From an uncultured bacterium (GTDB taxonomy: Bacteria; Fidelibacterota; Marinisomatia; Marinisomatales; JACNKV01), in NCBI GenBank assembly GCA_964422145.1, contig CAYQZV010000002.1:150817-214816 (forward strand): DNA of 64,000 nt. The letters run 5' to 3'. Made by a program: the position numbers and the translations under genes. The notes beneath the pieces are model-generated. The model was not told the origin of the DNA, did no database searches, and saw only the letters and a list, made by a program, of their open reading frames with translations. The stretch's first letter is position 1. Every line of letters begins with the position of its first letter. Shown piece after piece: positions 15,724-37,636 of this stretch.

Positions 15724-17670
15724 ATGATGAAACATCCGTTATGGAAACCGAATCCCGAAAAAGCTGAAAATAGTCAAATGGCTCAGTTTCTTGAATATAT
15801 CAATGACCGGCTTCATTTACACTTAACTCATTACCATGAATTGCATGAATGGTCCGTAAAAAATCCAACTGAATTCTGGGAATTCGCCTGGAGGTATTTT
15901 GATGTAATCTCATCCGAATCATACTCATCAATTGTCGATGATGTTCATAAGATGCCCGGCGCGAAATGGTTTGAAGGTGCTCAACTTAATTTTGCTGAAA
16001 ATCTTCTTCGTTTCCGAGACGATAAATACGCGGTGATATTCTGTTCAGAAAGCGGAGCGTCCTACTCCCTATCATATCGAGAGCTTTACCAAAAAGTTAC
16101 TGAAACAGCTTCTGCGTTAAAAAGTCTTGGAGTTCAAAAGGGAGATCGCGTTGCCGGATTCTTGCCGAATATCCCTGAAACGGTTATTATAATGCTGGCG
16201 GCAGCCTCTATCGGAGCGGTTTGGAGTTCTTCCTCCCCCGATTTTGGGATTAAGGGCGTACTGGATCGTTTTTCACAAATTAAACCTAAGGTGCTTTTTT
16301 CATCTTACGGGTGTTATTATAACGGGAAAAAACTCTCAACCATTGATAAACTGAAACAGATCGTTCGACAATTACCCGATCTAGAAAAAGTGGTCATTGT
16401 TCCGTATGGAGTGCCCGCAAATATCTCCGAAATTGATAATTGTATTATGTGGGAGGAATTCCTATCCAAAGGAGAATCGGAGGAAATTCATTTTGAACAG
16501 CTTCCTTTTGATCATCCGTTATATATCATGTATTCATCCGGGACGACCGGACTACCGAAATCCATTGTGCATTCTGCAGGCGGAACCCTGCTTCAGCATC
16601 TGAAAGAGCTTCGATTGCACACGGATTTGCGCAGGGACGACACGATCTTCTATTTTACAACCTGCGGCTGGATGATGTGGAATTGGCTCGTGACATCGTT
16701 GGCTGTCGGGGCTACCATTGTACTTTATGACGGATCTCCATTTTTTCCGGATGGGAACAAACTTTGGGAGATGGCTGAATCGCTCGGGGTAACAGTTTTT
16801 GGAACCAGTGCAAAGTATTTGGCGTCATGTGAATCCGCCGGAATTCAACCGAGAACCCGTTTTGATTTATCAGCCATGAGAGCGATTCTGTCTACAGGTT
16901 CACCATTACCAGAAGAAAGTTTCGATTATGTATATCGGGATATAAAAACCGATGTCATGCTGAGTTCGATTGCCGGAGGAACGGATATCATCTCATGCTT
17001 TGTTCTCGGGAATCCGACCTTACCGGTTTATCGCGGAGAGATCCAGTGTGCAGGACTCGGAATGGATGTCGATGCTTTTAACGAACTCGGGGATTCATTG
17101 ATCAATCAAAATGGGGAGCTCGTCTGTAAAACTGCCTTCCCCTCCATGCCTATCTACTTCTGGAATGACGAAAACAACAAAAAATATGAAAATGCATATT
17201 TCAACCAATATCCCGGTGTTTGGCATCATGGAGATTATATTACGATTACATCCAACGGCGGAATTAAAATGCATGGGCGGAGTGATGCGACACTCAATCC
17301 CGGCGGTGTGCGGATCGGAACGGCAGAAATCTATCGCAGTATCGAGACCTTGCCCGAAATCGTGGACAGCTTGGTGATCGGGCAGCCTTGGAATCACGAC
17401 GAACGAGTGATCCTGTTCCTCAAACTTGCGGCAGGATATCAGCTTTCAGATGATCTTATTCACAACGTCAGAACAGTTATAAAAACACAATGCTCACCGC
17501 GGCACGTCCCTCAAAAGATCATCAAAGTCAATGACATCCCTTATACGATCAACGGGAAAAAAGTGGAACTGGCGGTGAAAAATATCCTCTGCGGTAAAGA
17601 GGTAACAAATACAGATGCATTAAAAAATCCTGAAGCGTTGGATGAATATAAAAGTCTCTCTGAACTTTAA
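15724..17670 (+). CDS. acetoacetate-CoA ligase (acetoacetyl-CoA synthetase)
   Basis: 648 aa. AMP-binding motif YSSGTTGLPK. The N-terminal LWKP...MAQF... region and overall layout are typical of acetoacetyl-CoA synthetases. Confidence 0.85.
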   Translation: MMKHPLWKPNPEKAENSQMAQFLEYINDRLHLHLTHYHELHEWSVKNPTEFWEFAWRYFDVISSESYSSIVDDVHKMPGAKWFEGAQLNFAENLLRFRDDKYAVIFCSESGASYSLSYRELYQKVTETASALKSLGVQKGDRVAGFLPNIPETVIIMLAAASIGAVWSSSSPDFGIKGVLDRFSQIKPKVLFSSYGCYYNGKKLSTIDKLKQIVRQLPDLEKVVIVPYGVPANISEIDNCIMWEEFLSKGESEEIHFEQLPFDHPLYIMYSSGTTGLPKSIVHSAGGTLLQHLKELRLHTDLRRDDTIFYFTTCGWMMWNWLVTSLAVGATIVLYDGSPFFPDGNKLWEMAESLGVTVFGTSAKYLASCESAGIQPRTRFDLSAMRAILSTGSPLPEESFDYVYRDIKTDVMLSSIAGGTDIISCFVLGNPTLPVYRGEIQCAGLGMDVDAFNELGDSLINQNGELVCKTAFPSMPIYFWNDENNKKYENAYFNQYPGVWHHGDYITITSNGGIKMHGRSDATLNPGGVRIGTAEIYRSIETLPEIVDSLVIGQPWNHDERVILFLKLAAGYQLSDDLIHNVRTVIKTQCSPRHVPQKIIKVNDIPYTINGKKVELAVKNILCGKEVTNTDALKNPEALDEYKSLSEL

Positions 17671-17744
17671 TATTGATTGCTATGGGTTTTGCCGATCAAA
17701 TAACTTTCCGACCATACTTTTTGGTGTAAATCCCGATTAAGATC

Positions 17745-18950
17745 ATGACCACGACATTCAAAGCCGGACCTATAAGAAACAACCTTTGCAGCGACCTTCG
17801 TGTGTCCTACATCCCTTCTTCTGACGCGCTGACGATTGATATTCAAAACGAGACTGAGATTTCAAACTCTGCTTTGTTAAAAAACCATGCCAAGGCCGTT
17901 TGTAACGAATTGAGCGTAGAAACCGGGCACTTGATGTTAGAAGATTACAATGCTCCATCTTTTGTCATTTCTGCCCGCATTGAATCGGTTTTGAAAAAGG
18001 CGAATCCGAAATTAAACAAAGACGTGTTACCGGACATGACACCGGATTCACAATCCCCCACTTCCAGGGACAGGCTCCGCCGAAGCCGGCTTTACGTCCC
18101 GGGGAATCAAGTCAAACGTATGCTGAGCGCGGGCACATACAAACCTGACGGGGTCATTCTTGATCTGGAAGATTCCGTGTCTCCGGCTGAAAAAGAAGAT
18201 ACTCGGTATTTAATCCGAAACGCACTTCGAGCTCTGGACTTTCACGGTGCTGAGCAAATGATGCGAATTAATCATGGAGAGACGGGATTAAAAGATTTGA
18301 CGTTCGTCATTCCGCATCCGGTGCATCTGATTCTAATCCCGAAAGTTGAAAGTGCTGATCAACTCATTGCTGTCGATAATAAAATCGCAGAGATCAGTAA
18401 ATCCTGCGGACGAACAGAACCGGTGTTCCTCATGCCGATCATTGAATCCGCACGCGGCGTTTTGAATGCGTTGGAGATCGCTGAAGCGTCACCAAATAAT
18501 GTAGCATTGGCTATCGGATTGGAAGACTACACCGCCGATATCCGAACCCAGCGAACCGATAAAGACAGGGAATCACTCTTTGCCCGAAGCATGATCGTCA
18601 ATGCCGCTCGTGCTGCAGGTTTGCAGCCCATCGATGCAGTGTTCACGGATTTCGGAGACGAAAAAGGGCTGCGTGAATCCGTGCGGGAAGCCAAACAATT
18701 AGGCTTCGACGGAAAAGGATGTATCCATCCATACCAGATCAAACCCATCCATGAAGAATTTGCACCGCTTGAGTCAGAAGTAGAAAAAGCTAAAGAGATT
18801 GTTTTAGCCTTTGAACAAGCTGAAACAGAAAATTTGGGTGTCGTTTCCATCGGAACAAAGATGGTCGATCCGCCTGTTGTTAAACGCGCTCTCAACATCG
18901 TTCGACTTGCAATCGCGACCGGAATGCTGAATGAGGATTGGAATCATTAA
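17745..18950 (+). CDS. fusion of a CitD-like acyl-carrier domain and a CitE/HpcH-family (citryl-/malyl-CoA lyase beta-subunit) domain
   Basis: Residues ~1-90 align by eye to E. coli CitD (AG..SD.., IDIQN, LEDYNAPSFVISARIESVLKKA versus [22 protein letters not shown]). Residues ~110-401 carry CitE motifs (LDLEDSV, IPKVES, PIIES, GLEDY, GKGCIHP). Confidence 0.7.
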   Translation: MTTTFKAGPIRNNLCSDLRVSYIPSSDALTIDIQNETEISNSALLKNHAKAVCNELSVETGHLMLEDYNAPSFVISARIESVLKKANPKLNKDVLPDMTPDSQSPTSRDRLRRSRLYVPGNQVKRMLSAGTYKPDGVILDLEDSVSPAEKEDTRYLIRNALRALDFHGAEQMMRINHGETGLKDLTFVIPHPVHLILIPKVESADQLIAVDNKIAEISKSCGRTEPVFLMPIIESARGVLNALEIAEASPNNVALAIGLEDYTADIRTQRTDKDRESLFARSMIVNAARAAGLQPIDAVFTDFGDEKGLRESVREAKQLGFDGKGCIHPYQIKPIHEEFAPLESEVEKAKEIVLAFEQAETENLGVVSIGTKMVDPPVVKRALNIVRLAIATGMLNEDWNH

Positions 18951-18980
18951 AATGTTAATTAACCAAAATCATTATCCACT

Positions 18981-20402
18981 ATGCTAGATACAAGACGAGA
19001 AGTAAGACGACGAATCAGTCAATTAGAGTTTAACTCACAGAGGGCTTTAACCAAGATCTTTTTCAGCCTAGTTGCGGCGGCGGCGATCAGCTTAGTCCCT
19101 GATTATGCCGGGTTGTCTGAAGCCGGTCGATGGACATTTTTCATCATGTTATTCGGCGCAGGATTATGGATATCGGAAGCGATTCCTGCTTTTGCCACCG
19201 CATTGGTGATCATCGCATTGGAGATCGCTATTTTAGGGAATCCGAATGGTGTTTTTGCAACCGGTCCCAAAGATTGGGAAATGTTCATCCGGCCGTGGTC
19301 CAGTCCGTTGATTTGGCTGTTCTTCGGCGGATTCATCCTCGCAGCCGCGGCTTCCAAAACTCGATTAGACCGCTGGATTGCCCGGAATGTTCTGGGCTGG
19401 TTCGGCACGCGCCCGATCAATGTGCTGATGGGATTGATGATCATCACGTTCATCTTTTCGATGTTCATGTCCAACACAGCAACCACGGTGATGATGCTGG
19501 CGGTTTTAATGCCGGTGATCGCCAAACTTGATCCAAAAGATCCGTTCGCAAAATCCATGCTGCTTGGCGTTCCATTTGCAGCCAACTTAGGCGGTATGGG
19601 GACGATTATCGGCTCTCCTCCGAATGCGATCGCCGTCGGTTCGTTATCCGGAGTGTTCTCTATCAATTTTGCCGAATGGATGATGATCGGATTACCACCT
19701 GCCATCGTTTTGGTCATTTTAGCCTGGATCTATCTGATCAAACACTATCCTGCGAAAACGGATACCATTGACTTAAGTGATCTCTTGGACAGCTCGTATC
19801 AAAGTGCAATTCTGCCGCTTTGGAAAAAATTACTGGCCTTAGCCGTTCTCATTCTGACCATCGGATTATGGCTGACCAGTCCTCTCCACGGCATCCCAAC
19901 GCCGGTCGTGTCCTTTTTACCCATCGCTTTATTCGCTTCCGTCCGGATCATCGGTGTTGACGACCTTCGAAAACTACCGTGGGAAGTCTTGATCCTGTTG
20001 ACCGGGGGATTATCCTTGGGTGTAGCTGTGTTAAAAACCGGATTGGCCGAATGGTTGGTCGGCGGGTTGTCCCTGGAAAAGGGCGGCACGATCATTTTGA
20101 TCTTTCTGTTTGCCTATACAGCCACGATCATCTCCAATTTTATGAGCAATACAGCCGCGACTAATATTTTAGTTCCGATTGGATTAACCGCTGCCATCGG
20201 GTTTGAACCGCACATCGTGGTCGCTATTGCACTCGGTGCCTCTTCTGCCATGTGCATGCCGATCTCAACCCCGCCGAATGCGTTGGCATATTCATCCGAA
20301 AAACTGGACATGAAAGATTTTCTGACCGGCGGAATTTTGATCGGACTGCTTGCACCAGTTCTATCCGTATCATGGATCATCTGGATAATCGATAAAATTT
20401 AA
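18981..20402 (+). CDS. DASS (SLC13) family di/tricarboxylate or sulfate:sodium symporter
   Basis: Two hairpin SNT motifs (FMSNTATTVMM and FMSNTAATNILVP). 473 aa, polytopic. Confidence 0.88.
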   Translation: MLDTRREVRRRISQLEFNSQRALTKIFFSLVAAAAISLVPDYAGLSEAGRWTFFIMLFGAGLWISEAIPAFATALVIIALEIAILGNPNGVFATGPKDWEMFIRPWSSPLIWLFFGGFILAAAASKTRLDRWIARNVLGWFGTRPINVLMGLMIITFIFSMFMSNTATTVMMLAVLMPVIAKLDPKDPFAKSMLLGVPFAANLGGMGTIIGSPPNAIAVGSLSGVFSINFAEWMMIGLPPAIVLVILAWIYLIKHYPAKTDTIDLSDLLDSSYQSAILPLWKKLLALAVLILTIGLWLTSPLHGIPTPVVSFLPIALFASVRIIGVDDLRKLPWEVLILLTGGLSLGVAVLKTGLAEWLVGGLSLEKGGTIILIFLFAYTATIISNFMSNTAATNILVPIGLTAAIGFEPHIVVAIALGASSAMCMPISTPPNALAYSSEKLDMKDFLTGGILIGLLAPVLSVSWIIWIIDKI

Positions 20403-20463
20403 TCGGTTTATGATCATGAAGCCGCTTCTACTTAAACAGCATAATTACGGTGGTTAAATACAC

Positions 20464-21057
20464 ATGAAACATCCTGCATTCTTTTCAGACATTGAACCGA
20501 TCATTCTTCAAGACAAACTGGCGCATTTTCTCGGTGCGTTTGAAAATGGCATCATCGAATTTCACTACTTAGATGTGGTGAAATCCGCCGGACACAGCTG
20601 CCCGACCGTTGCCGGGGCTTTCTTAATGACACGTGAAGGACTGAAAGCTTTATATCCCCAGGGACTTCCACAGCGCGGTGAGATTTTAGTCTCATTTAAA
20701 GAAGATATCAATGACGGCGTGACGGGTGTTATTGCAAATATCGTCACTCAAATTACCGGGGCTACCGAACATCACGGATTCAAAGGCATCGGCGGTCAAT
20801 TTGCCCGATACGGACTGATGCAATTTCAAGATGATATCCCTTCCAACATTCGGTTTCAACGAAAAGACACCGGTGAAACGGTGGACGTTTATTATGATCC
20901 GACTCGTATCCCCGTTGATCCTCTTCAGCCGCAGCTTATGCAGAAAATCAAAATGGGAACCGCAACAACTGAGGATAAAATATCTTTTGCTGAACTTTGG
21001 CAAAAACGGGTAGAACAAATTTTTAATGATGTTGAAAGTGTCATAAAAGTAACTTGA
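20464..21057 (+). CDS. hypothetical protein, weakly FmdE-like (GHSCPTVAGA motif)
   Basis: 197-aa ORF. The only cue is a motif resembling the HxCPG of FmdE-domain proteins. Confidence 0.35.
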   Translation: MKHPAFFSDIEPIILQDKLAHFLGAFENGIIEFHYLDVVKSAGHSCPTVAGAFLMTREGLKALYPQGLPQRGEILVSFKEDINDGVTGVIANIVTQITGATEHHGFKGIGGQFARYGLMQFQDDIPSNIRFQRKDTGETVDVYYDPTRIPVDPLQPQLMQKIKMGTATTEDKISFAELWQKRVEQIFNDVESVIKVT

Positions 21058-21187: not shown

Positions 21188-21745
21188 ATGCACAGAATGG
21201 GTCAAAGAATAAAAAAGCGAAGAGAAAGCCTGAATATTCAGACGGTTGATCTTGCCAACAGTATAAATGTTACCTCCAGTCTCATCTCACAGATAGAACG
21301 GGGGAAAGCCTTTCCATCTATCCTTACGTTGAAAAAGATAGCCGATGCACTGCAGACATCTGTGGGGATTTTGATCGGTGAAAAAGCAACCTTTATTAAA
21401 AATCCTGTGCTCAAAGCATCTGAACGCAAGTTTGCAAAACGCAACAAAAAAGGGGCTAGTTTATTCCTTTTATCTCACCATGATTCTTTAAAGCAAATGG
21501 ATCCGTTTATCGTTGAGTTTAAGAAAAACGGAGATTCAAGAGATATCATGACTACGAACAATCCCAGACAGGAATTCATTTATGTGTTGAAAGGGAGTTT
21601 CCAAGTAGAACTCCGTGAAAACACTTATACTATTCACGAGGGTGACAGTTTTTACTTTTATTCATCTCAGAAACATCTGTTTACAAATATTTCAGAAGGA
21701 ACGGCTCAGTTTATTTGGGTTGTAAACCAAGCTAACAATCATTAA
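21188..21745 (+). CDS. XRE-family HTH regulator with C-terminal cupin domain
   Basis: HTH region NIQTVDLANSINVTSSLISQIERGK..PSILTLKKIADAL, and a cupin-like C-terminus (GDSFYF...H). Confidence 0.85.
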   Translation: MHRMGQRIKKRRESLNIQTVDLANSINVTSSLISQIERGKAFPSILTLKKIADALQTSVGILIGEKATFIKNPVLKASERKFAKRNKKGASLFLLSHHDSLKQMDPFIVEFKKNGDSRDIMTTNNPRQEFIYVLKGSFQVELRENTYTIHEGDSFYFYSSQKHLFTNISEGTAQFIWVVNQANNH

Positions 21746-21764
21746 TCAAAACAAAGATTTCAAT

Positions 21765-23306
21765 ATGGATTTAACAATTAACAATATTATAGACCGAAGC
21801 AATTATTCCGACGAAACAAAAGAGATCATCGCAAAAGAAAACTTGCTCCCGATCGGTCTGTTGAAAAGATTACACAGCAGTTATCCAAATGCATCCGGGA
21901 TCATGGATACCTCTGCAAAAATGTTTACGGAAAAAGCACGATATTCCGGTTTAAACGGGTACAACGAAATTATCGACATACTGGAAAAAAATGGTATTAA
22001 CTTGGGTTATGCCGATGAAAGAGAACTTTTTATCCGAATATATCGCTTCATGGCAACCAAACATGTGCTGAATTCTATCAACTGGAAAGACTTTGAAAAA
22101 GATTCCCTCTTTCAATTGACATTCCCTCAGCCGAGAATGATCGCAGAAGAAACTGTCCGGGAGTTTACTGACGCTGGTTCTGAAGAAGAAAAACAGAATA
22201 TTGTAGATGAGTACATCAAAAGATTCACCAACCCGCATGACGGAAAACAGTTGCTGAACAAACCTTGGTTTACCAATGATGGTGGTGATTTGGAATTTCT
22301 GGAAGGAAGCCAGCATAAATATCCGCCGGTTCAACTGATCTTTGACAAATCGACACAGGAATGTTTCGCCTTCTGTACTTATTGCTTCAGACATGCACAG
22401 GTTAGAGGGGACGATGACATGTTTGTTCAAAACGAGATCACACCTGTTCATGATTATCTGAAACAGCATAAAGAAATCTCTGATATGCTTATTACCGGCG
22501 GAGATGCCGGGTATATCACCTACAAAAGATTGAAAGCCTATGCCTTGCCGGTGATTGAAGACCCTGATTTGCTTCATATCAAAACACTTCGACTGGGCAG
22601 CCGCGTGTTAACGTATCATCCTGAAATGATCCTGACAAAAAAATACGAAAAGATTCTGGAACTTTTCCGTCATCTTATTGAAAACGGCGTTCAAGTAATC
22701 TTTATGTCACACTTTTCAACACCAAGAGAATTACTTAATCCTGCAACGGTTGCGGCTATCAGAAGATTAAAATCCTATGGGGTTACTTTGAAAAGTCAAA
22801 GCCCGATTATGAATCATATCAGCTTGTTCACCTATGACAACGGTGAAATCGATGTTGACCGCTCAGCGCAAAACTGGATTGATCTTGGAAACATCCTTGC
22901 TATGTTGGGCATGGGATTTCATTCGATGTATTGTGCCAGACCCACTGGAGAGCACCATTACTTTACTTCGCCTTTGGCGGATATCAACAAAGTGTTCAAC
23001 AAAGTTTACAGAACCCTTGCCTCCGTGAACAGGCCTTCAAGATATATTACGATGACATCATCAGCCGGAAAGGTTTCGCTGATAGGAACAACAGAAATCA
23101 AGGGAGAAACCTTATTCGTTCTTAAATTTAATGAAGGACGTAATATGGAATGGATTGATAAAGTGTACTTGGCGAAATATGATGAAAAAGAGAATACAAT
23201 CGAAAAGCTTATCCCATACGAAGGAGATAAGCACTTTTATGAAGATGAGTTAATCGAGATTGAAAACACCCTCCAGGAAAGTCTGGAAGCTCGATTGAAT
23301 AAATAA
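21765..23306 (+). CDS. KamA-family radical SAM aminomutase (2,3-aminomutase-like), long form
   Basis: CxxxCxxC cluster CFAFCTYCFRH and a KamA-like layout. At 513 aa it is longer than canonical KamA. Confidence 0.7.
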   Translation: MDLTINNIIDRSNYSDETKEIIAKENLLPIGLLKRLHSSYPNASGIMDTSAKMFTEKARYSGLNGYNEIIDILEKNGINLGYADERELFIRIYRFMATKHVLNSINWKDFEKDSLFQLTFPQPRMIAEETVREFTDAGSEEEKQNIVDEYIKRFTNPHDGKQLLNKPWFTNDGGDLEFLEGSQHKYPPVQLIFDKSTQECFAFCTYCFRHAQVRGDDDMFVQNEITPVHDYLKQHKEISDMLITGGDAGYITYKRLKAYALPVIEDPDLLHIKTLRLGSRVLTYHPEMILTKKYEKILELFRHLIENGVQVIFMSHFSTPRELLNPATVAAIRRLKSYGVTLKSQSPIMNHISLFTYDNGEIDVDRSAQNWIDLGNILAMLGMGFHSMYCARPTGEHHYFTSPLADINKVFNKVYRTLASVNRPSRYITMTSSAGKVSLIGTTEIKGETLFVLKFNEGRNMEWIDKVYLAKYDEKENTIEKLIPYEGDKHFYEDELIEIENTLQESLEARLNK

Positions 23307-23336
23307 CGAATCCACAACCCATTAATTGGACCTATT

Positions 23337-24050
23337 ATGATCAATAAAATTAAACCATCCGCAGCCGAGGCAGTCGCTGATATCTTTGACGGTGCGACGG
23401 TCATGATCGGCGGATTTGGAGAAGCCGGCAGTCCCATTGAGTTGATCCATGCTCTGATTGATCAGGGCGCGAAAGACTTAACTGTCGTCAGCAACAACAC
23501 CGGCAGCGGCAACATCGGACTCGCAGCGTTGATCGAACAGCGACGCGTGCGTAAAATGATCTGCTCGTTCCCAAGGACGGCAAACTCAACCGTTTTCCCT
23601 GAATTGTACAATGCAGGAGAAATTGAATTGGAACTCGTTCCACAAGGCACATTGGCTGAGCGGATTCGATCTGCCGGAGCAGGAATCCCAGCTTTTTTCA
23701 CGCCCTCTTCTGTGGGAACGCCGTTAGAAGAAGGAAAAGAAACCCGCGATTTTGATGGAACGACTTACGTCATGGAACATGCGATCTATGCGGATTTTTC
23801 ATTGGTGAAAGCGCTAAAATCGGATCGATACGGAAATCTCGTTTACAATAAAACAGCCCGGAATTTCAGTCCCATCATGTGTATGGGTGCTAAAACAGCC
23901 ATCGTTCAAGTCAAAGAAATTGTTGAACTCGGCGACATTGATCCGGAATGCGTTGTAACGCCCGGTGTGTTTGTCCAGCGAGTCGTTGAGATTGCGAACC
24001 CGGAACATGAATCAAAGCTTGTTGCAGAAGGAAGGCGGTATCCATCATGA
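23337..24050 (+). CDS. 3-oxoacid CoA-transferase subunit A
   Basis: GGFGEAGSPIELI...KDLTVVSNN, as in ScoA/AtoD/PcaI. Confidence 0.9.
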   Translation: MINKIKPSAAEAVADIFDGATVMIGGFGEAGSPIELIHALIDQGAKDLTVVSNNTGSGNIGLAALIEQRRVRKMICSFPRTANSTVFPELYNAGEIELELVPQGTLAERIRSAGAGIPAFFTPSSVGTPLEEGKETRDFDGTTYVMEHAIYADFSLVKALKSDRYGNLVYNKTARNFSPIMCMGAKTAIVQVKEIVELGDIDPECVVTPGVFVQRVVEIANPEHESKLVAEGRRYPS

Positions 24051-24697
24051 TCGCATTTGAGAAAAAAGGCTGGAGCCGTGATGAAATGGCTCAGAGAGCG
24101 GCGCAAGATATCCCGGACGGTGTTTATGTCAATCTGGGAATCGGCATTCCTGAAAAAGTCGCCGGGCATGTTCCTGAAGGCCGCGAAGTGATCTATCATA
24201 CAGAAAATGGTTTACTTGGGATGGGTCCCACACCGGAAGCCGGACTGGAAGACCCGGAATTGATTAATGCAGGGAAAAAACCTGTGACGGCGGTTAAGGG
24301 AGCGTGTTACTTTCACCACAGCGACAGCTTTACCATGATCCGCGGCGGACACATTGATTACTCCGTGTTGGGGGCACTTCAAGTCTCCAAGGATGGCGAT
24401 CTTGCGAATTGGTCCACCGGAAAACCGGGTGCAATTCCTGCGGTTGGCGGAGCAATGGATTTGGTCGCCGGTGTGAAAAATGTCTGGGTGATCACGGATC
24501 ACAATACCAAAGACGGTCAATTTAAAATCGTCAATGAATGTTCATTCCCTCTCACAGGGAAAGGCGTTGTGGATACCATCTACACCAATCTTGCTGTCAT
24601 GGATGTTACGGAGAAAGGATTGGTCGTCAGAGAATTAGCTCCAGGCGTTACCTTTGACTATCTGCAAGAGCACACAGAACCGAAACTGCTTCGATAA
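24047..24697 (+). CDS. 3-oxoacid CoA-transferase subunit B
   Basis: Catalytic-Glu motif TENGLLGMGP. ATGA overlap with subunit A. Confidence 0.9.
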   Translation: MIAFEKKGWSRDEMAQRAAQDIPDGVYVNLGIGIPEKVAGHVPEGREVIYHTENGLLGMGPTPEAGLEDPELINAGKKPVTAVKGACYFHHSDSFTMIRGGHIDYSVLGALQVSKDGDLANWSTGKPGAIPAVGGAMDLVAGVKNVWVITDHNTKDGQFKIVNECSFPLTGKGVVDTIYTNLAVMDVTEKGLVVRELAPGVTFDYLQEHTEPKLLR

Positions 24698-24710
24698 GGA
24701 AAACTTGATA

Positions 24711-26087
24711 ATGTCACCTACAAAGCAAAAAACCAGTGCCGATATCTATGCGGATGCTGTGACTGTTCTTCCTGGCGGTGTAAGTCGAAACACCATCTTT
24801 CATAAACCTTATCCGCATTATGCTGCAGGCGCACAAGGATGTTATGTAACTGATATTGACGGAACAAAACGAATCGACTTCGCCAATAATATGGCATCCC
24901 TGATACACGGGCATGCATACCCGCCTGTTGTGAAAGCGGTCACCGAACAGCTTAAAAAAGGGTCTGCCTATACTCTTGCAACAGAAATAGAAGTTCGATA
25001 CGCCCAGCATTTGACCGGCCGTGCAGAAAGTCTTGAAAAGATCCGATTTGTCAACTCCGGGACAGAAGCGGTTATGTCCATGATTAAAACAGCCAGAGCT
25101 TTTACCGGAAAGTATAAGATAGCAAAAGCAGAAGGGTCCTATAACGGCTCGTATGACTTTGTTGAAGTGAGCCAGGTATCCGGTCCTGAGAACTGGGGTG
25201 ATGTGGCAAAACCCACTCGGAATCCCTTGGCATTTGGTACACCTCCGGGCGTGCTGGAAGATGTAATTGTGTATCCGTTCAATGACACAAGCAGGACCAT
25301 CAATCTCCTGAACGAATACGCCGATGAGATAGCCTGCGTATTAATTGATCCCATTCCGCACCGGATAGGATTATTTGAATCCACAAGTGAGTTTGTAGAA
25401 GCCATTTACAATTGGACCCGAGAAAATAATTCACTCATGGTGTTTGATGAAGTCATAACTTTTCGTACTAATTATGGAGGGGCTCAGGAGAATTATCCCC
25501 ATAAACCTGATCTGACAGCCTTAGGCAAAATGATTGGAGGCGGATTCCCCGTGGGGGCATTCGGCGGCCGTGCAGATGTGATGGATGTCATGAATCCTGA
25601 TAATTCCCCTCTCAAACTACCGCATTCAGGGACGTTTTCAGCCAACCCGATTACCACAACTGCCGGCTACGTGGCCATGAATGATTTTAACAAGGATGCT
25701 ATTTCAGCTCTTAATTCACTGACCCAAAAAGCCATCGATCAAATCTGGGAAGCTATCGAGCTGGCCGAAGTTCCTATGTCCATCTCAGGATCCGGCTCTA
25801 TGTTCAGGCTGCATCCGAGAAGACGTGTTCCGGAATCATACAGAGAAGCTTTCCAGTTTAAAGAAGAAAAGTCGATCATGACAAAAATCCTTGACCATTT
25901 ATTCTACAAGGAAAATATCATTATGGTTAATACAGGAACCGCTATGTTTTCTACAGCCATTACCCAGAAAGAAGTAGATAAGCTCTCTGAAGGATTGTAC
26001 AACGCCTTTATTGCCAATAAAGAAGAATTGACCGAAGTTTGGGAAAAGTATCACACAGAACATTTAGACGCCGACCCGAGGAAATAA
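24711..26087 (+). CDS. class-III (HemL/GSA-aminomutase-like) PLP aminotransferase
   Basis: The start is moved to MSPTKQK. PLP-lysine region LGKMIGGGFPVGAFGGR. FDEVITFR motif. Confidence 0.85.
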   Translation: MSPTKQKTSADIYADAVTVLPGGVSRNTIFHKPYPHYAAGAQGCYVTDIDGTKRIDFANNMASLIHGHAYPPVVKAVTEQLKKGSAYTLATEIEVRYAQHLTGRAESLEKIRFVNSGTEAVMSMIKTARAFTGKYKIAKAEGSYNGSYDFVEVSQVSGPENWGDVAKPTRNPLAFGTPPGVLEDVIVYPFNDTSRTINLLNEYADEIACVLIDPIPHRIGLFESTSEFVEAIYNWTRENNSLMVFDEVITFRTNYGGAQENYPHKPDLTALGKMIGGGFPVGAFGGRADVMDVMNPDNSPLKLPHSGTFSANPITTTAGYVAMNDFNKDAISALNSLTQKAIDQIWEAIELAEVPMSISGSGSMFRLHPRRRVPESYREAFQFKEEKSIMTKILDHLFYKENIIMVNTGTAMFSTAITQKEVDKLSEGLYNAFIANKEELTEVWEKYHTEHLDADPRK

Positions 26088-26089
26088 CT

Positions 26090-27292
26090 ATGAAACACGT
26101 TTATATTTGCGACGCAATCCGTACTCCTGTTGGAAAATTTGCAGGGACGTTATCATCCGTTCGACCCGATGACCTAGCTGCCATTCCGATGAAAGCATTA
26201 CGCGAAAGAAATCCTAATATCGATTGGGAAAATGTTGATGACGTCATCTACGGATGTGCAAACCAAGCCGGTGAAGATAACCGAAATGTAGCGAGAATGG
26301 GACTTCTGCTTGCCGGGTATCCAGTGAGTGTTCCCGGTGTTACCGTAAACCGTCTTTGCGGATCAGGAATGGAAGCTATTGGAGCAGCTGCACGAGCGAT
26401 CCGAATTGGTGAAGCTGATCTCATTGTGGCCGGCGGCGTGGAAAGCATGACCCGCGCTCCGTTTGTTGTAGGGAAATCCGACACAGCATTTGGTCGATCT
26501 CAGGAATTTTTTGATACAACCATCGGCTGGCGGTTCATTAACAAAAATCTGGATAAAATGTACGGCACGGAATCCATGATACAGACCGCAGAAAATATTG
26601 CCAAGGATTTTAATATCAGCCGTGAAGATCAAGATGCGTTTGCCCTTTGGAGTCAAACAAAAGCCAAAAAAGCTCAGGAAGAAGGACTCTTAGCTCGAGA
26701 AATCGTCCCTGTGGTGATCCCACAGCGAAAAAAAGATCCTGTCATTTTTGAACACGATGAACATCTAAGATTCTCTCCGCTTGAAAAACTGGCTTCTTTG
26801 AGACCGATTCTTGGAGAAGGGACATCCATCACAGCCGGGAATGCATCCGGTGTGAATGACGGTGCAGCGGCACTAATTATTGCATCGGAAATTGCGGTGA
26901 AAAAATACAATCTGTCTCCCATCGCAAAGATCAAGGGAATGATGTCAGCCGGTGTCGAGCCGAGAATTATGGGAATGGGACCCGTCCCCGCAACCCGGAA
27001 ATTATTGACGCATCTCGGAATGACGCTTGACCAAATGGATATCATTGAATTGAATGAGGCTTTTGCCGCTCAATCGCTGGGATGCACGCGGGGATTGGGT
27101 CTTGCTGATGATGATGAAAGAATTAACCGCCTGGGCGGAGCCATCGCATTGGGACATCCGCTTGGGATGAGCGGCGCAAGGCTGGTAACATCGGCGGCTT
27201 ATCAGATAAAACATTCTGATGCAAAAACAGCTCTCTGCACGATGTGTATCGGCGTTGGGCAGGGAATTGCGATGGTCATCGAAAAAGTCTGA
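26090..27292 (+). CDS. acetyl-CoA C-acyltransferase, PaaJ/PcaF (3-oxoadipyl-CoA thiolase)-like
   Basis: The start is moved to MKHVYICDAIRTPVGKF. Motifs CANQAGEDNRNVARM, NRLCGSG, FDTTIGWRFIN, NEAFAAQ and CTMCIGVGQGIAM align almost residue for residue with E. coli PaaJ as I remember it. Confidence 0.9.
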   Translation: MKHVYICDAIRTPVGKFAGTLSSVRPDDLAAIPMKALRERNPNIDWENVDDVIYGCANQAGEDNRNVARMGLLLAGYPVSVPGVTVNRLCGSGMEAIGAAARAIRIGEADLIVAGGVESMTRAPFVVGKSDTAFGRSQEFFDTTIGWRFINKNLDKMYGTESMIQTAENIAKDFNISREDQDAFALWSQTKAKKAQEEGLLAREIVPVVIPQRKKDPVIFEHDEHLRFSPLEKLASLRPILGEGTSITAGNASGVNDGAAALIIASEIAVKKYNLSPIAKIKGMMSAGVEPRIMGMGPVPATRKLLTHLGMTLDQMDIIELNEAFAAQSLGCTRGLGLADDDERINRLGGAIALGHPLGMSGARLVTSAAYQIKHSDAKTALCTMCIGVGQGIAMVIEKV

Positions 27293-27682
27293 TCTTGGCT
27301 CTTCACCTTCCCGGGGATGCTTTAAGTTTATATTTTAGTCTGTATTTAAACAAAGATTCTCTCGAAATAAATCACATTAATCTATTCCTAAGATTTTGAA
27401 CCCTTACAACAACATTATTTCTAAAGTATTTATGTATTCATGACCAAAATAGAAGAAACCAGTGACTGAATCAGATTATGGTAAAAGGGCATATGTTTGC
27501 CCATTATCATCTTATCGTTCATTGAAAAGACAGCTTCTAAAAACAGAACTCAATTACTTTGGACCAATTTTTAGCCAGAATTTATAGCAATAAATATATT
27601 TGGGTCTTAGCGTTACAACAGATGGGTTAAGCAGCAAAAATTCTTGTGAAATAGTCCACTTAAGTGATTTGCTAGTTTTTCA

Positions 27683-28261
27683 TTATTCCATTAACCTAAA
27701 CCAGTCTCTTACGGTTAATTTTAGCCTGACGATTTCGTCCTCCGCTAATGGACTACAATGGGCAATTGGGCCCCTTAAAAGATTTAGACTATTCATCACT
27801 CTATTGAAACCTTTCTGGCTATTAAATAAGTCACCAAATTTATCCCAATTTTTTCTAACTATTTCTCCTAGTTCACCAAAGGTTGTGTAATCAAGCTCGT
27901 CATCTGATCTTTGTGTAAAGGCTGAATCTACTTCCCTTTTTATATTGTCTATTACGTTTTTTCTAATATGGCTTGGTATATCAACAATATCCCACCAGTT
28001 GTCACTAATTTCAGATTTTAATTTTTCATTTATTATGTTTCTTATTGACACTTCTAAACAATAGAAAAGTTCATAGTGAACTGCCATTTCTCTGGCTTCT
28101 GCTCGTATAGCATGTTGGAACTGTGGGTAATAGTCCTCATCTTTATCTTTTTCTGGATCATAATCACGACCTAATTCAATCTTAAGATTCTCCTCTATAT
28201 TATCTAAAGCTCGTTCAGCCATTTGGTTAGACATTGCAAATAGTTTTATTTTATCTTCCAT
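27683..28261 (-). CDS. Swt1-like HEPN domain protein (putative RNase)
   Basis: 192 aa. Rx4H motif R163-GPIA-H168 within LNLLRGPIAHCSPL. Upstream landmarks LEVSIRNIINEKL, DNWW and DYTTFGELGEIVRKNWDKF match my memory of PF18731. Confidence 0.75.
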   Translation of the reverse strand: MEDKIKLFAMSNQMAERALDNIEENLKIELGRDYDPEKDKDEDYYPQFQHAIRAEAREMAVHYELFYCLEVSIRNIINEKLKSEISDNWWDIVDIPSHIRKNVIDNIKREVDSAFTQRSDDELDYTTFGELGEIVRKNWDKFGDLFNSQKGFNRVMNSLNLLRGPIAHCSPLAEDEIVRLKLTVRDWFRLME

Positions 28262-28263
28262 GA

Positions 28264-28893
28264 TTATTTCTTCAGTAGATTTTCACGGAGACTTTTAAAA
28301 ATAGCACTAAATACAGCCACATCATCAGTTTTGGGTAAAACTAAATTGATTGTGTATGAAAGATTTAATTTCAACTCACCCTCTTGACCAGTATTCCCTG
28401 AAACCTCGGGTTGATTGGGTGTTGCCGGAGTCTTTAATTCCCCTTCAACTGGTTTTGTTTTGAAATCGGCAAATGATTTTAAAGCTTTAAAGGTCCCGTA
28501 GATTGCCCGTATAGTTTTATTACCTTTTTCAAGACCAGTCATTTCAACAATAAGACCTTCAAGGTCGCTTTTTTTTAAGCTATGTGCATACTCATTTCTT
28601 GAATATATATCAGCATATGCATTTTTTATTGCACATGCCATAGCAGCCTTGGATACTTTTTCATTTGTGTTTCTAAACTGTTTATAGAGTTCAGTTGGTG
28701 TTCCATCTGTACCTAACAAACCTAACTTTTTGGCTAATGGAATAAATGCTTTTGCACCTCCACCTGGAAAGCCTAATTCCGTAGCTATATAATCTTGAGT
28801 AAACCTATCTGGGGTAGCAGCAACCTTAATCTTGTCTAATATCTTCGATATTACGCCAGTTGCATTCATAAATGCGGGATAATTCTTTGCCAT
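28264..28893 (-). CDS. DUF5343-like protein (partner of the HEPN protein)
   Basis: 209 aa. The N-terminus NATGVISKILDKIKVAATPDRFTQDYIATELGFPGGGAKAFIPLAKKLGLLGTDGTPTELYKQFRN resembles the DUF5343 consensus as I recall it. There is a 2-nt gap to the HEPN gene. Confidence 0.55.
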   Translation of the reverse strand: MAKNYPAFMNATGVISKILDKIKVAATPDRFTQDYIATELGFPGGGAKAFIPLAKKLGLLGTDGTPTELYKQFRNTNEKVSKAAMACAIKNAYADIYSRNEYAHSLKKSDLEGLIVEMTGLEKGNKTIRAIYGTFKALKSFADFKTKPVEGELKTPATPNQPEVSGNTGQEGELKLNLSYTINLVLPKTDDVAVFSAIFKSLRENLLKK

Positions 28894-28936
28894 GCCTATC
28901 TCCTATATTCTTTGTAATTATTTTTGCCAACCAACA

Positions 28937-28962
28937 GCAGGGGATGTATATACACCCCCTGC
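28937..28962 (-). terminator. hairpin downstream of the T9SS-cargo gene (weak terminator candidate)
   Basis: GCAGGGG/CCCCTGC stem 14 nt past the stop. The T-run on the minus strand is poor. Confidence 0.3.
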
Positions 28963-28975
28963 CTTGATTCTTCTA

Positions 28976-31900
28976 TTATTTCAGCAGTACCAGTTTCTTG
29001 GTTTCAACAAAGCCACCTGACTTCATTCGGAATAAGTACATTCCGGATGGAACACGGTCACCGTTTTGATTCGTTCCGTTCCACATCAGTTTATATCTGC
29101 CTGCCGGAGTGAACCCGCTAACCAATTCAGCTACGACACGCCCGGATAAATCATATATCGTAAGTGTTATGTAACTATCTGCCGGTACGTCATACTCAAT
29201 CGTTGTTGTCGGGTTGAACGGGTTCGGGTAATTTTGACGTAATGCAAATTCAGTAGGGAGAGCAGTAGTTTCATCTGATTCTTTCCAAATCGCTCCAGGA
29301 ATATGTCTATATGTATGTACTTGGTTTGAATATTCGAAAGGCTGATTACTTAGATTCACCGCTCTGACCTGATAATTAACACGTTGATGTTCGCCAGTGC
29401 CCGGATCAACTTTTGTCACCTTGTATGTTAATCTTCCGTCCGGTTCTTCATCAATCTGCGAAATAGTAAAATCACCATCTTCATATGACCCGGTATTTTC
29501 GGTATCTATTATCACATTTTCAGAATTTGGACCCACAAACTCTCTCCATATCTCATGATGCTGATAATGATCAAAAGGATCAAACTCCCATGATAATGTC
29601 GGATGAGTACCAACTTCACCTGAAATGGACAGTAGTGTCGGCACCATTAATTGATCATAATAATATGCACCAATATCTGCTCTTGTAAGATCGGGATCTA
29701 AAGGAGAAGCTGGGTTTCCGGCATTAATACAGGGGCTGCTGGGTTGAAGGTGAAAATCATAGGTGCTCGGGTCTACAAAAAGCGGATCATCTGTTTGATT
29801 TCCAACCAAATTTATAGAATCAAAGTACTCCTCACTTAAATCGCCGCAGTAATATAGATTTGAATAACTGAGGTCTAATATAAAATCGGTATGATGATCT
29901 AAGCCAGTAATCAAATTATCGACATCCAATATTGTATTTACAATATTTAGATGAATATCCGACGAGTGATATATACTGGAACTAACAAAATTACCAGTAT
30001 TCACCAAGGTATTGTTTGTACTGTTTATTGTTAAATCAACATTAATAAGATCAGGATAACAATAACTAACCATACCTTCAGAGATATTATTAAACACGCA
30101 ATGATCAATATTAATATTAACATTTCCCTCATGACCCATTGAAAGTCCTTTTTCAGTATTTGAAATTGTGGAGTTACTAACATTAACGTTGCGGTCAACC
30201 TTTAACGTGGAGTTGACAAACTCAGAACCATCCATCGAGATTAAATGATCAACGGTGATTTTGAATCCGGTTGTATTTACTATCTCAGTAGGACCGCTGA
30301 ACCTTATGGTGATATCCCTGGGGACATTAAGATAAGTTCGTTCTGTATTATCACCTATTGTGAAGCTGGCTCCAGTGAATAAAAGATCATTTAAAAACCC
30401 GCCCATTATAGTACCGCCCGGGATAGTGACATCATAAACATCCCAGAACTCAATCGTGCCGCCGGCGCTGATATCTACCTCACTCAAAACGCCTTCAAGA
30501 TGAGCATTGTCTCCGGTAATAGCCACTTGATGGTAATATTCAAAATCTTGGTACCCTTCGCCCGGATCATATGTCAGATACAAATCATCAACTAAATAAT
30601 CAACATTCGGATCACTTACAACATCGCCTACAATTGTCATCGTATTATTGTTGATCGAAAAATACGGTTCAAAATCAACATGAAATTCATTGTATTCATA
30701 CCGAAGGCTGCCGTTTGCAACCGTAATGTTTTGGTAATAATCCGCTGCTATTACAACATCAGATGAAATTGATGATATATATGTATCAGGCTGATTTATA
30801 TTTGCGATTGTGCATATCCCACTGACAACCTGCCATCTTTTGAAAACTTGGTAAGTACCATCTCCGTTTTCAATAAATGGAGGTGAACTCATTCCAAGAT
30901 ATTCATCATTCTCAGACAAGGTAACATTGGGATCACCCGTTGAAACATTATAATACGCCGCTTCAACACCGGCACTACCAGATAAAAATACTACGTCAGT
31001 TTCTCTTGCTGTTGTTGTGGTATTACCGCCACCAAAATCGACTTGATCACCTACCCACTCTGCGAATACATTAAACCCTTCTGTATCAGTATTAAGAATT
31101 GTAGAGGTACGCAAAGAGTATATAAGATAACCTGGGTTAAAATTTACATTCTGATTCAAGAAAATGTTATAGAATTCAACGATTGATATCCAGTCCTCAC
31201 CTGTTTGACTCCCATCATCACGAACATACCAAGGGTCTTGAATTTCAGGACTGATTTCTGCTCCTATTGCTGTAATAGAAATTTCATGTTGTTCTTCAAA
31301 CCAAGCTGATAAACCGTCATTAAAATACATCTGTTCCATTTGAAACTGTTCAGTCGTTAATCGAAAATCAAGATCATTTGTCCAAGTAATCTGTTTTTCA
31401 TTATCTATTACTTCACTATGTGTTGTTGCAATATAGCTGTCATTTAGCCTTGCAAATAGTATAGAGGGAGATGGTTGATTAAGGTGAGTCAATTCTGGTG
31501 TGTCAATATTATATAACGAAAGTGTACCTGAAAGAAATCCATCCGGATCGGATGTTGATTTGTTTGATAATACAATTTCTTCATTTAGATTAACAGTAAT
31601 AAACAAAGCATCATCCGTTATGTTTAATTCAGGAATATCATCTCGGAAAAAATACGGATTCAGTTGAGGGTAAAACTCAACTAAATTAACTAATAATAAT
31701 TCTGAATAATGCTCTCCAAGGTTAAACGTGACCGTACTCTCTATTGGTAACCAATTAGGCCAAACATTAACAGTTAAACCAACTGTTATATTATCAAGGA
31801 CAATAAATGCATCGCCGGATTCAATGTCCTTTTCAATGGATGGCTCTCCCGATATATCAATCATTAAGTCCTTTGAGTGTGAAAACCCAAAATTATTATA

Positions 31901-32191: not shown

Positions 32192-32209
32192 TATATTCTC
32201 TCTTTCTGA

Positions 32210-33118: not shown

Positions 33119-33216
33119 TAATATCTCCTGTTTTTTTCTGTTTGTATTGATTATAACCCGATACAGGAAGTATATTTCACTAGGAATACTTCTTGATATC
33201 AGGTTGTATTCATATC

Positions 33217-33256
33217 CAGCCCCAATAATTGTTCTAAAGCTAATTTATTGGGGCTG
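33217..33256 (-). terminator. 12-bp perfect hairpin downstream of the beta-propeller lipoprotein gene
   Basis: CAGCCCCAATAA / TTATTGGGGCTG, 36 nt past the stop at 33292. There is no clear T-run. Confidence 0.45.
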
Positions 33257-33291
33257 CTCTTATATGAATTCTTTCTTAATTATCCAAAACC

Positions 33292-34620: not shown

Positions 34621-34742
34621 CAAGTTTAGTTTAAAATACATGATCAGCCTTTTTGTTTTGGAGAATCTACTCAAAAAATTCCTTTATAATGTTAAGTAAT
34701 TTGGGGTTCATTGGTTTTGATAGTAGTTTTTAATTTTAGTAT

Positions 34743-35150: not shown

Positions 35151-35157
35151 AAATATT

Positions 35158-37627: not shown

Positions 37628-37636
37628 TCTCCTTTT

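Follow-up and report, generated by a model that had tools for sequence, protein, structure and literature searches.

Which compound is degraded by an operon that joins a gene for a radical S-adenosylmethionine (SAM) protein of aminomutase type to genes for an aminotransferase, a coenzyme A (CoA)-transferase and a thiolase? Such an operon occupies positions 21188-27292 of the window, the 64-kb stretch of DNA from an uncultured bacterium that was analyzed here, and all coordinates below refer to it. Six genes follow one another on the plus strand with successive gaps of 19, 30, -4, 13 and 2 nucleotides (nt) in the open reading frame (ORF) listing, and public gene calls on contigs with an identical KamA-like protein match this layout. 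We propose that the five enzyme genes probably suffice for the catabolism of L-2-aminoadipate, a C6 amino dicarboxylate derived from lysine, and so make up a self-contained route.

The first gene (21188-21745, plus strand, as are all six) encodes an XRE-family regulator of 185 amino acids (aa) with a helix-turn-helix and a cupin domain (Pfam HTH_3 and Cupin_2), a PuuR-like architecture. It is followed by the gene for a divergent KamA-family radical-SAM/pyridoxal 5'-phosphate (PLP) enzyme of 513 aa (21765-23306), the proposed 2-aminoadipate 2,3-aminomutase, and by the genes for the PcaI-like subunit A (23337-24050; TIGR02429) and the PcaJ-like subunit B (24047-24697; TIGR02428) of a 3-oxoacid (3-oxoadipate):succinyl-CoA CoA-transferase. 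The two subunit genes share an ATGA overlap, through which translation of subunit B is predicted to be coupled to that of subunit A. The operon continues with a class-III aminotransferase of the glutamate-1-semialdehyde aminomutase (GSAM) fold (24711-26087; 458 aa; Aminotran_3), the proposed 3-aminoadipate:2-oxoacid beta-transaminase, and ends with a putative 3-oxoadipyl-CoA thiolase of the PcaF/PaaJ type (26090-27292; 400 aa; TIGR02430 equivalog). The longer, TTG-started ORFs listed for the aminotransferase (from 24654) and the thiolase (from 26039) are upstream-start artefacts. Scans for promoters and terminators returned hits at chance level and are ill suited to the promoters of the FCB group.

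A sequence-only reading of this DNA had described six co-directional genes separated by 30 nt or less, or overlapping, and all six ORFs were found on the plus strand. The motifs that it quoted (CFAFCTYCFRH, CANQAGEDNRNVARM, FDTTIGWRFIN and CTMCIGVGQGIAM) are all present, and its family assignments hold in profile searches with Pfam and NCBIfam, that to KamA being weak. It had also remarked on the absence of the lysine fermentation genes kamDE, kdd and kce from the cluster, which the window annotation bears out: none of them was found among the larger window ORFs annotated, and neither the window cluster nor the 160 related loci inspected had kamDE, kdd, kce or kal/kat beside kamA.

In the proposed pathway, the KamA-like enzyme would move the amino group of 2-aminoadipate from C2 to C3, yielding 3-aminoadipate, and the class-III aminotransferase, with 2-oxoglutarate or pyruvate as the 2-oxoacid that accepts the beta-amino group, would then produce 3-oxoadipate. 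The PcaIJ-type transferase would convert 3-oxoadipate and succinyl-CoA to 3-oxoadipyl-CoA and succinate, and the PcaF-type thiolase would cleave 3-oxoadipyl-CoA to acetyl-CoA and succinyl-CoA. Since the thiolase would regenerate the succinyl-CoA donor, the pathway would close on itself and five genes would be sufficient, which fits the solitary operon of most genomes, the one in the window included. The net reaction would be 2-aminoadipate + 2-oxoacid + CoA -> succinate + acetyl-CoA + amino acid, which is redox-neutral and O2-independent and suits anaerobic FCB-group carriers. Together with lysine-ketoglutarate reductase (LKR) and saccharopine dehydrogenase (SDH), with lysine-dehydrogenase-like or pipecolate-oxidase-like enzymes, and with the dehydrogenase acting on L-piperidine-6-carboxylate (P6C) or alpha-aminoadipate semialdehyde (AASA), the operon would take lysine or pipecolate to succinate and acetyl-CoA. 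For the transferase and thiolase steps we rely on ortholog-level similarity. The chemistry of the families, the residues of the active site and the genomic context led us to infer the aminomutase and transaminase steps; the substrates of these two enzymes, the amino acceptor and the flux direction are likewise proposals.

A transferase of the PcaIJ type and a thiolase of the PcaF type

We examined the two final activities by profile and pairwise comparison. Subunit A of the transferase scored 357 bits against TIGR02429 (PcaI/ScoA; cutoff 128.5) and matched Bacillus subtilis ScoA (3cdk) with an E value of 4e-66, and subunit B scored 302.7 bits against TIGR02428 (PcaJ/ScoB; cutoff 243.55). The catalytic-glutamate motif TENG is present in subunit B, within YHTENGLLGMGP. 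Because these hidden Markov models do not separate PcaIJ from ScoAB, the PcaIJ specificity is a prediction. A tblastn search of plasmids led to a textbook protocatechuate cluster, pcaR-pcaI-pcaJ-pcaF beside pcaDCHG in Sinorhizobium meliloti Rm41. Full-length identity to PcaI, PcaJ and PcaF of this strain was 61%, 55% and 61.5%, respectively, the last over the 400 aa of the thiolase. The CoA-transferase is thus predicted to be of the PcaIJ type.

The thiolase scored 667.3 bits against the pcaF equivalog TIGR02430 (cutoff 597) and 682.4 bits against PRK09050 (cutoff 605). Its matches to the beta-ketoadipyl-CoA thiolase of Pseudomonas putida (6pca-6pcd) reached E values of about 1e-160, compared with about 1e-95 for acetoacetyl-CoA thiolases, and the catalytic Cys/His/Cys motifs NRLCGSG, GHPLG and CIGVGQG are present. 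The claim of the sequence-only reading that the thiolase is of the PaaJ/PcaF type therefore stands, given the passed equivalog cutoff and the identity to S. meliloti PcaF, and a preference for 3-oxoadipyl-CoA is predicted.

The plasmid gene closest to that of subunit A (70% identity) was found on plasmid pTM2 of Tistrella mobilis (L089; NC_017966.1, 337828-350532). Within a few kb of it are a DUF1338 gene, which we take to belong to the HglS family, an aminotransferase gene and the gene for an aldehyde dehydrogenase that shares 58% identity with the P6C dehydrogenase from locus L090 described below. On pTM2, genes of the aerobic 2-aminoadipate route stand beside a transferase of the PcaIJ/ScoAB type.

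A divergent KamA-like protein retains the catalytic residues of lysine 2,3-aminomutase

The KamA-like protein scored 67.9 bits against the NCBIfam model of the KamA subfamily (TIGR00238), under the cutoff of 199.2, and did not reach the cutoffs of the models for lysine 2,3-aminomutase (LAM) (TIGR03820; 61.5 bits, cutoff 525.4), glutamate 2,3-aminomutase (TIGR04368; 61.2 bits, cutoff 650) or EpmB (TIGR03821; 49.1 bits, cutoff 369.3). Over the KamA, lysine, glutamate and arginine 2,3-aminomutase and EpmB models, scores of 49-68 bits stood against cutoffs of 199-650, and a Pfam search at E <= 1e-3 gave no match. The possibility, raised with the original proposal, that the protein belongs with EpmB can be set aside on these scores, which also keep it apart from the other characterized clades. 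Judged by these scores, it is a remote branch beyond the curated boundary of the KamA family.

LAM (2A5H) was the sole PDB match to the protein by sequence. A model was computed with AlphaFold2 (mean predicted local distance difference test score, pLDDT, 71; predicted template modeling score, pTM, 0.75), and a Foldseek search of the PDB with this model returned LAM 2A5H as the sole significant match (E 5e-12; TM score 0.60 normalized to the target; 431 columns), spanning the whole LAM chain. To map individual residues, the LAM sequence was checked against the PDB. A global hhalign alignment of the KamA-like family with LAM was dropped as unreliable, its register being implausible over the C-terminal half, and we used a bridging MAFFT alignment, in which LAM was connected through 24-40%-identical intermediates from an exhaustive search of representatives. 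The resulting mapping agrees with the secondary structure of the AlphaFold2 model.

In this alignment, the cysteines of C200-x3-C204-x2-C207, which all 18 of the 18 aligned family members possess, fell on the Fe-S cysteines C125, C129 and C132 of LAM, and T244-G-G-D247 corresponded to the GGD motif for SAM. Arg209, at the position of LAM Arg134, which we take to bind the alpha-carboxylate of the substrate, is invariant, and so is Lys436, at the position of the PLP-binding Lys337. The spacing of P403 and K436 equals that of P304 and K337 in LAM, with the same beta-helix-beta layout in the model. Since the fold and the Fe-S, SAM, carboxylate and PLP residues of LAM are kept, a PLP- and SAM-dependent 1,2-amino shift is expected. 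The cysteines of the LAM zinc site were absent from the KamA-like protein in the alignment.

The side-chain pocket differs from that of LAM. The positions of Asp293 and Asp330, presumably the residues that hold the epsilon-ammonium group of lysine, are occupied by Arg392 and, in ungapped register, by Thr429. Arg392 does not vary within the family, where it forms part of the motif ARPTGEHH[YH]F. Lepore et al. reportedly described the roles of Asp293, Asp330, Arg134 and Lys337 of LAM in 2005, and the glutamate 2,3-aminomutase of Ruzicka and Frey (2007) is said to carry Lys and Asn in place of the two aspartates. The arginine at the Asp293 position therefore rules out that a cationic side chain is bound as in LAM, and Arg392 appears well suited to the distal carboxylate of a substrate.

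Among the distant relatives, we inspected the neighborhoods of P0124, P0127, P0129, P0133, P0136 and P0159, which were heterogeneous and gave no clue to the substrate. P0159 (28% identity; locus L087, 6001-13305, GCA_015232395.1) shares the arginine at the Asp293 position, and its gene is followed by genes for a 471-aa SAM methyltransferase, a cupin resembling dimethylsulfoniopropionate lyase and a large MscS-type channel. This locus resembles an osmolyte-type module, perhaps one for a methylated beta-amino acid.

The aminotransferase resembles transaminases of free beta-amino acids

The possibility that the aminotransferase is a bona fide HemL was examined next to its structural relatives. 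Its scores against the HemL models TIGR00713 (319.5 bits, cutoff 527.3) and PRK00062 (316.5 bits, cutoff 398) both fell short. The best PDB match was the omega-transaminase 6K8H of Sphaerobacter thermophilus (StoTA; E 9e-106), which acts on free beta- and gamma-amino acids, followed by ForI and by the beta-phenylalanine and beta-transaminases 4ao9, 2yku and 6iz9 (about 1e-48). The motif of the PLP lysine, LGKMIGGG, is present. An identity as HemL is thus dismissed by scores under the HemL cutoffs and by the better matches to 6K8H and ForI.

The five enzyme genes are conserved as an operon

Of the candidates scored, 1,394 proteins fell within the KamA-like family at E <= 1e-5, and most of these are unnamed or automatically named "L-lysine 2,3-aminomutase". 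Two sets of loci were compiled. The genome set consisted of the best 80 loci, the KamA-like protein being encoded in 459 species-representative genomes, and the metagenome set added 80 more loci from a scan seeded with P0121, the most divergent representative of the family (60% identity).

The order KamA-like gene, CoA-transferase A, CoA-transferase B, aminotransferase and thiolase was complete in 59 of the 80 genome loci; 19 were cut by a contig end and 2 were fragmentary. No gene was inserted into the core in any of the 80, loci with wider spacing included. The 80 metagenome loci, with GC contents from 0.30 to 0.68, had the same core order, and the KamA-like gene always came first. The five-gene arrangement is far above chance. 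Hosts included Ancylomarina isolates and metagenome-assembled genomes labelled Bacteroidales, Lentimicrobiaceae, Marinilabiliales, Ignavibacteriae/Melioribacteraceae, Balneolales/Cyclonatronaceae, Rhodothermaceae, Cloacimonadota, Chlorobiaceae, Elusimicrobia and Edwardsbacteria.

The regulator gene was less constant. An XRE-cupin gene immediately preceded the core in 17 of the 80 genome loci and 19 of the 80 metagenome loci, and other lineages had a divergent LysR/GcvA-type regulator in its place. The XRE-cupin protein, with weak similarity to PuuR in NCBIfam, is a probable local regulator of the operon. The six-gene cluster originally described was therefore upheld for the five enzymes, which are kept together throughout both sets, and not for the regulator. 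Clustering of the flanking ORFs in the 80 genome loci yielded no other recurrent partner of the core.

The operon adjoins genes for 2-aminoadipate formation in divergent lineages

The core adjoins genes that form 2-aminoadipate in at least four divergent architectures, which were found in 15 of 163 loci, about 108 of which had usable flanks. In two loci of the P0121 lineage (L090 and L091), a gene of the Sacchrp_dh family and a gene for a 510-aa P6C dehydrogenase (P6CDH) precede a divergent LysR-type regulator gene and the five-gene core, and the aldehyde dehydrogenase passes the P6C (AASA) dehydrogenase equivalog (798 bits, cutoff 730). P6C dehydrogenase forms 2-aminoadipate. In L117, L120, L135 and L139, a P6CDH gene (795-803 bits, same cutoff) lies on the same strand 21-141 nt after the thiolase gene and genes of the saccharopine dehydrogenase family flank the core on both sides, giving SDH(-)|[core]-P6CDH-SDH. 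L093 carries genes for a LIV-type ABC transporter, P6CDH (808 bits) and an AmaA-like L-pipecolate oxidase, divergent from the core across a LysR gene. Four loci in Cloacimonadota genomes read SDH-LKR-[core]-amino-acid permease with gaps of 12-39 nt; here the LKR aligns end to end with the corresponding domain of human alpha-aminoadipic semialdehyde synthase (AASS; 1e-77), and the SDH matches saccharopine reductase/Lys9 and the SDH domain of AASS (1e-92).

The KamA-like proteins of three deep branches of linked loci are about 60% identical to one another. Because of this distance and of the differing gene orders, the association with lysine genes recurs across the diversity of the family. The linkage to 2-aminoadipate formation is the decisive context for the aminoadipate series. 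The sequence-only reading had outlined a route from an alpha-amino acid through a beta-amino acid, a beta-keto acid and a beta-ketoacyl-CoA to thiolysis, which the PcaIJF identity and the lysine-gene linkage support. It had suggested 2-aminoadipate, 3-aminoadipate and 3-oxoadipate as one substrate series among several, and this series is now favored by the identities to PcaI, PcaJ and PcaF and the four or more linked architectures; glutamate and beta-lysine, which it gave as alternatives, have become less likely.

Other genes were observed at the P0121-lineage loci. A gene for a B12-binding radical-SAM protein of 451 aa with weak similarity to the PhpK family (L090, 13913-15268; L091, 10909-12264) is co-directional with the core and begins about 380 nt after the thiolase gene. 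In L090 (1065-3475), a gene resembling opine dehydrogenase (Pfam Octopine_DH) and an ornithine-oxo-acid transaminase gene (passing TIGR01885) lie upstream of the Sacchrp_dh-family and P6C dehydrogenase genes, and through this pair the cluster may also serve opines or basic amino acids other than lysine.

Alternative readings

Several observations weigh against the 2-aminoadipate route, whose substrate assignment draws on context and homology. The lysine-to-aminoadipate genes stand beside the core in only 15 of the approximately 108 adequately flanked loci. In the Cloacimonadota operons, which show LKR and SDH, P6C dehydrogenase was not found within the stretch examined, and neither LKR nor SDH nor P6CDH was found within the 64-kb window. 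The source of 2-aminoadipate is thus not apparent locally in most genomes, and in the bacterium of the window it would come from genes elsewhere or from uptake. The AlphaFold2 model is of moderate confidence (pLDDT 71) and low at the Fe-S loop and at residues 391-401, and the roles of Asp293, Asp330 and Arg134 in LAM are ones that we assumed. Arginine at the Asp293 position also occurs in most of the distant relatives (67 of about 91 aligned), which sit in heterogeneous contexts that do not look catabolic; Arg392 is therefore supportive of an acidic substrate but not decisive. PcaF-type thiolases, moreover, are reported to accept 3-oxoglutaryl-CoA as a further substrate.

One alternative is a route in which glutamate is converted to beta-glutamate, 3-oxoglutarate and 3-oxoglutaryl-CoA and cleaved to malonyl-CoA and acetyl-CoA, or in which 3-oxoglutarate gives acetoacetate and then two acetyl-CoA. 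The KamA family includes glutamate 2,3-aminomutases, Arg392 would suit the glutamate carboxylate too, and ForI, the second-best structural relative of the aminotransferase, presumably places an amino group on the central carbon of a pyrazole dicarboxylate. In eight Bacteroidales/Lentimicrobiaceae loci a beta-carbonic-anhydrase-like gene comes after the operon, an acetoacetate-CoA ligase gene lies upstream in the window, and catabolism of beta-glutamate was not described in the literature searched. We nevertheless consider this route very unlikely: the glutamate 2,3-aminomutase equivalog is missed by a wide distance (about 61 bits, cutoff 650), the transferase and thiolase have ortholog-level matches to 3-oxoadipate enzymes, genes handling malonyl-CoA or malonate and glutamate-specific genes were never linked to the core, all recurrent metabolic neighbors make 2-aminoadipate and not glutamate derivatives, and the carbonic-anhydrase and ligase neighbors are lineage-specific. 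Less probable still is a start from lysine itself, with the KamA-like protein acting as a lysine 2,3-aminomutase and LKR/SDH or lysine dehydrogenase, together with the aldehyde dehydrogenase, converting beta-lysine to 3-aminoadipate. Linkage to enzymes that remove the epsilon-amino group of lysine is equally compatible with this order, and lysine is the substrate of most characterized KamA-family enzymes, but both aspartates that hold the epsilon-ammonium group in LAM are gone, one being replaced by an invariant arginine, and the scores for the LAM and EpmB equivalogs (61 and 49 bits) lie below the respective cutoffs (525 and 369). In addition, the aldehyde dehydrogenase passes the canonical P6CDH equivalog, the LKR and SDH are near the canonical AASS domains, and in most genomes the core stands without any such neighbor.

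Two further schemes were considered. An order resembling that of Kat, in which the CoA-transferase first activates 3-aminoadipate and the aminotransferase turns 3-aminoadipyl-CoA into 3-oxoadipyl-CoA, would fit the gene order aminomutase, CoA-transferase A/B, aminotransferase, thiolase and avoid a free, decarboxylation-prone beta-keto acid, and the alternative lysine fermentation (PMC3149608) provides a precedent in a class-III acyl-CoA beta-transaminase. This order is unlikely, since free 3-oxoadipate is the substrate of true PcaIJ, with which the transferase shares 55-61% identity, the nearest characterized relatives of the aminotransferase (6K8H, 4ao9 and 2yku) use free beta-amino acids, and no Kat-type model was present among its 25 best NCBIfam matches. 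The logic of aminomutase, transaminase, CoA-transferase and thiolase would suit any beta-keto acid, including that of Poston's orphan route from leucine through beta-leucine and beta-ketoisocaproate to isobutyryl-CoA and acetyl-CoA; beta-leucine is accepted by transaminases of the 6K8H type, and, all four steps being reversible in principle, the operon could also run biosynthetically from succinyl-CoA and acetyl-CoA to 2-aminoadipate. We give a neutral substrate or a biosynthetic direction the least credence of all. The thiolase and transferase are PcaF and PcaIJ orthologs, the side-chain pocket holds an arginine, the neighbors are catabolic (a permease, a LIV-type ABC transporter, LysR and XRE-cupin regulators and lysine-degrading dehydrogenases), and condensation by the thiolase is thermodynamically uphill. 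The conversion of 2-aminoadipate through free 3-aminoadipate and 3-oxoadipate is thus the reading that we prefer.

Neighboring features of the window

Four co-directional genes (15724-21057, plus strand) lie directly upstream of the operon. They encode an acetoacetate-CoA ligase, which at 935 bits exceeds the cutoff of the TIGR01217 equivalog, a CitE-like lyase whose N terminus carries an acyl-carrier domain resembling CitD/MdcD (a CitD-CitE fusion lacking a CitF partner), an anion symporter of the DASS family and an FmdE-like protein. We considered these genes as a part of the system and rejected them, as they were absent from all 160 related loci and were kept only beside an identical KamA-like protein. 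They could form a separate module for oxo-acids or dicarboxylates, or the DASS protein could import a dicarboxylic substrate.

The beta-carbonic-anhydrase-like gene mentioned above lies on the same strand about 70-250 nt after the thiolase gene in L017, L050, L051, L053, L065, L068, L079 and L080, and such a gene lies upstream of the operon in L006. We did not adopt it as evidence for a decarboxylation step, for which it is a weak clue, as the downstream gene is confined to these eight Bacteroidales/Lentimicrobiaceae loci. Further along the window, genes for an MmgE/PrpD-family protein (41787-43220, plus strand) and for the catalytic subunit of methylmalonyl-CoA mutase (46043-47542, minus strand; 737 bits) point to succinate/propionate metabolism in this bacterium, which could consume the succinate or succinyl-CoA of the proposed pathway.

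Beside the operon, a stretch of minus-strand genes (about 27600-40600) has a GC content of 0.34-0.38, compared with about 0.42-0.48 for most other DNA of the window. It contains a paired HEPN_Swt1 gene (27683-28261) and DUF5343 gene (28264-28893), a gene for a 1071-aa protein with the Por_Secre_tail domain of the type IX secretion system (28976-32191), and a gene for a ThiF/E1-like protein of 486 aa (35158-36618), all on the minus strand, as well as a gene for a tetratricopeptide-repeat protein and several ORFs with no Pfam match. This stretch resembles an acquired island, possibly related to defense.

Relation to known systems

Neither 3-aminoadipate metabolism nor an aminoadipate aminomutase nor the five-gene operon was found to be described in a literature search, which returned only metabolomics and unrelated papers. 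We think it fairly likely that the operon represents an undescribed, O2-independent branch of lysine catabolism through 3-aminoadipate and 3-oxoadipate to succinate and acetyl-CoA, and that its first enzyme has a new radical-SAM activity and would be the first characterized member of a large, arginine-marked KamA-like branch. At 50% identity, this unannotated branch falls into more than 1,200 clusters, and other members of it may make further beta-amino acids, the methyltransferase, cupin and MscS context of P0159 being an example. All components come from known enzyme families, and the novelty therefore lies in the specificity of the aminomutase and the assembly of the pathway, not in a categorically new system.

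If correct, this reading would give 2-aminoadipate a third fate, one that needs neither oxygen nor oxidative decarboxylation, and would explain how lysine carbon reaches succinate and acetyl-CoA in many anaerobic Bacteroidota, Ignavibacteriota, Cloacimonadota and their relatives. It would add a substrate class to the radical-SAM aminomutases and provide the first functional anchor for a clade labelled "hypothetical" or "L-lysine 2,3-aminomutase", whose partner aminotransferase scores best against HemL. The beta-ketoadipate lower pathway would gain a non-aromatic, amino-acid entry point. The enzymes would connect lysine to 3-oxoadipate, a key intermediate in engineered adipic-acid pathways, and would be biocatalysts for beta-amino dicarboxylic acids.

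The closest relative of the first enzyme is LAM (KamA of Clostridium subterminale, 2A5H), with which it has in common the fold, the CxxxCxxC and GGD motifs and the equivalents of Arg134 and Lys337. It differs from the KamA family in its low identity (about 17-26%), its failure at every curated cutoff and its approximately 90 extra N-terminal residues, and from LAM in the missing zinc cysteines and the replacement of Asp293 by an invariant Arg and of Asp330 by Thr. Whereas genes of the KamA family occur with kamDE/kdd/kce, ablB or efp/epmA, the KamA-like gene occurs in an operon with PcaIJF, and its proposed substrate, 2-aminoadipate, is used by no known member. The transaminases StoTA (6K8H), Mesorhizobium MesAT (2yku) and the Variovorax enzyme (4ao9) are the closest characterized relatives of the aminotransferase and likewise turn free beta-amino acids into beta-keto acids; they act on aromatic or aliphatic beta-amino acids and lack a defined physiological pathway, whereas the enzyme described here belongs to a dedicated operon and likely acts on a beta-amino dicarboxylate.

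With the lower beta-ketoadipate pathway (pcaIJF of S. meliloti, PcaF of P. putida), the operon shares the I-J-F order, the chemistry and the recycling of succinyl-CoA. In contrast to the pca pathway, 3-oxoadipate would arise here from an amino acid by an O2-independent beta-transaminase reaction and not from oxygenolytic cleavage of protocatechuate or catechol. The operon also lacks pcaBCDGH and catABC, has the aminotransferase gene between pcaJ and pcaF, and is carried mostly by anaerobic hosts of the FCB group.

The known fates of 2-aminoadipate begin with its transamination to 2-oxoadipate, which gives either glutaryl-CoA by 2-oxoadipate dehydrogenase or D-2-hydroxyglutarate by HglS/DUF1338 in P. 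putida. The upstream half of these routes, from lysine through saccharopine or pipecolate and P6C to 2-aminoadipate (LKR, SDH, AmaA-like enzymes and AmaB/P6CDH), is shared with the linked loci. In the proposed route, however, a shift of the amino group to C3 and entry at 3-oxoadipate would replace oxidative decarboxylation or the O2-dependent HglS reaction, and 2-oxoadipate, glutaryl-CoA and crotonyl-CoA would not be intermediates.

The overall design is that of lysine fermentation, in which a beta-amino compound is formed by a radical aminomutase and converted to a beta-keto compound by a class-III transaminase or a dehydrogenase, and C-C cleavage leads to acetyl units. In contrast to lysine fermentation, the operon has no kamDE, kdd, kce or kal and its aminomutase lacks the lysine-binding residues; the predicted products are succinate and acetyl-CoA, compared with butyrate and acetate. 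A variant of lysine fermentation uses the 3-aminobutyryl-CoA transaminase Kat (Perret et al. 2011, PMC3149608). The transaminase of the operon was not identified as Kat and is instead related to the transaminases of free beta-amino acids.

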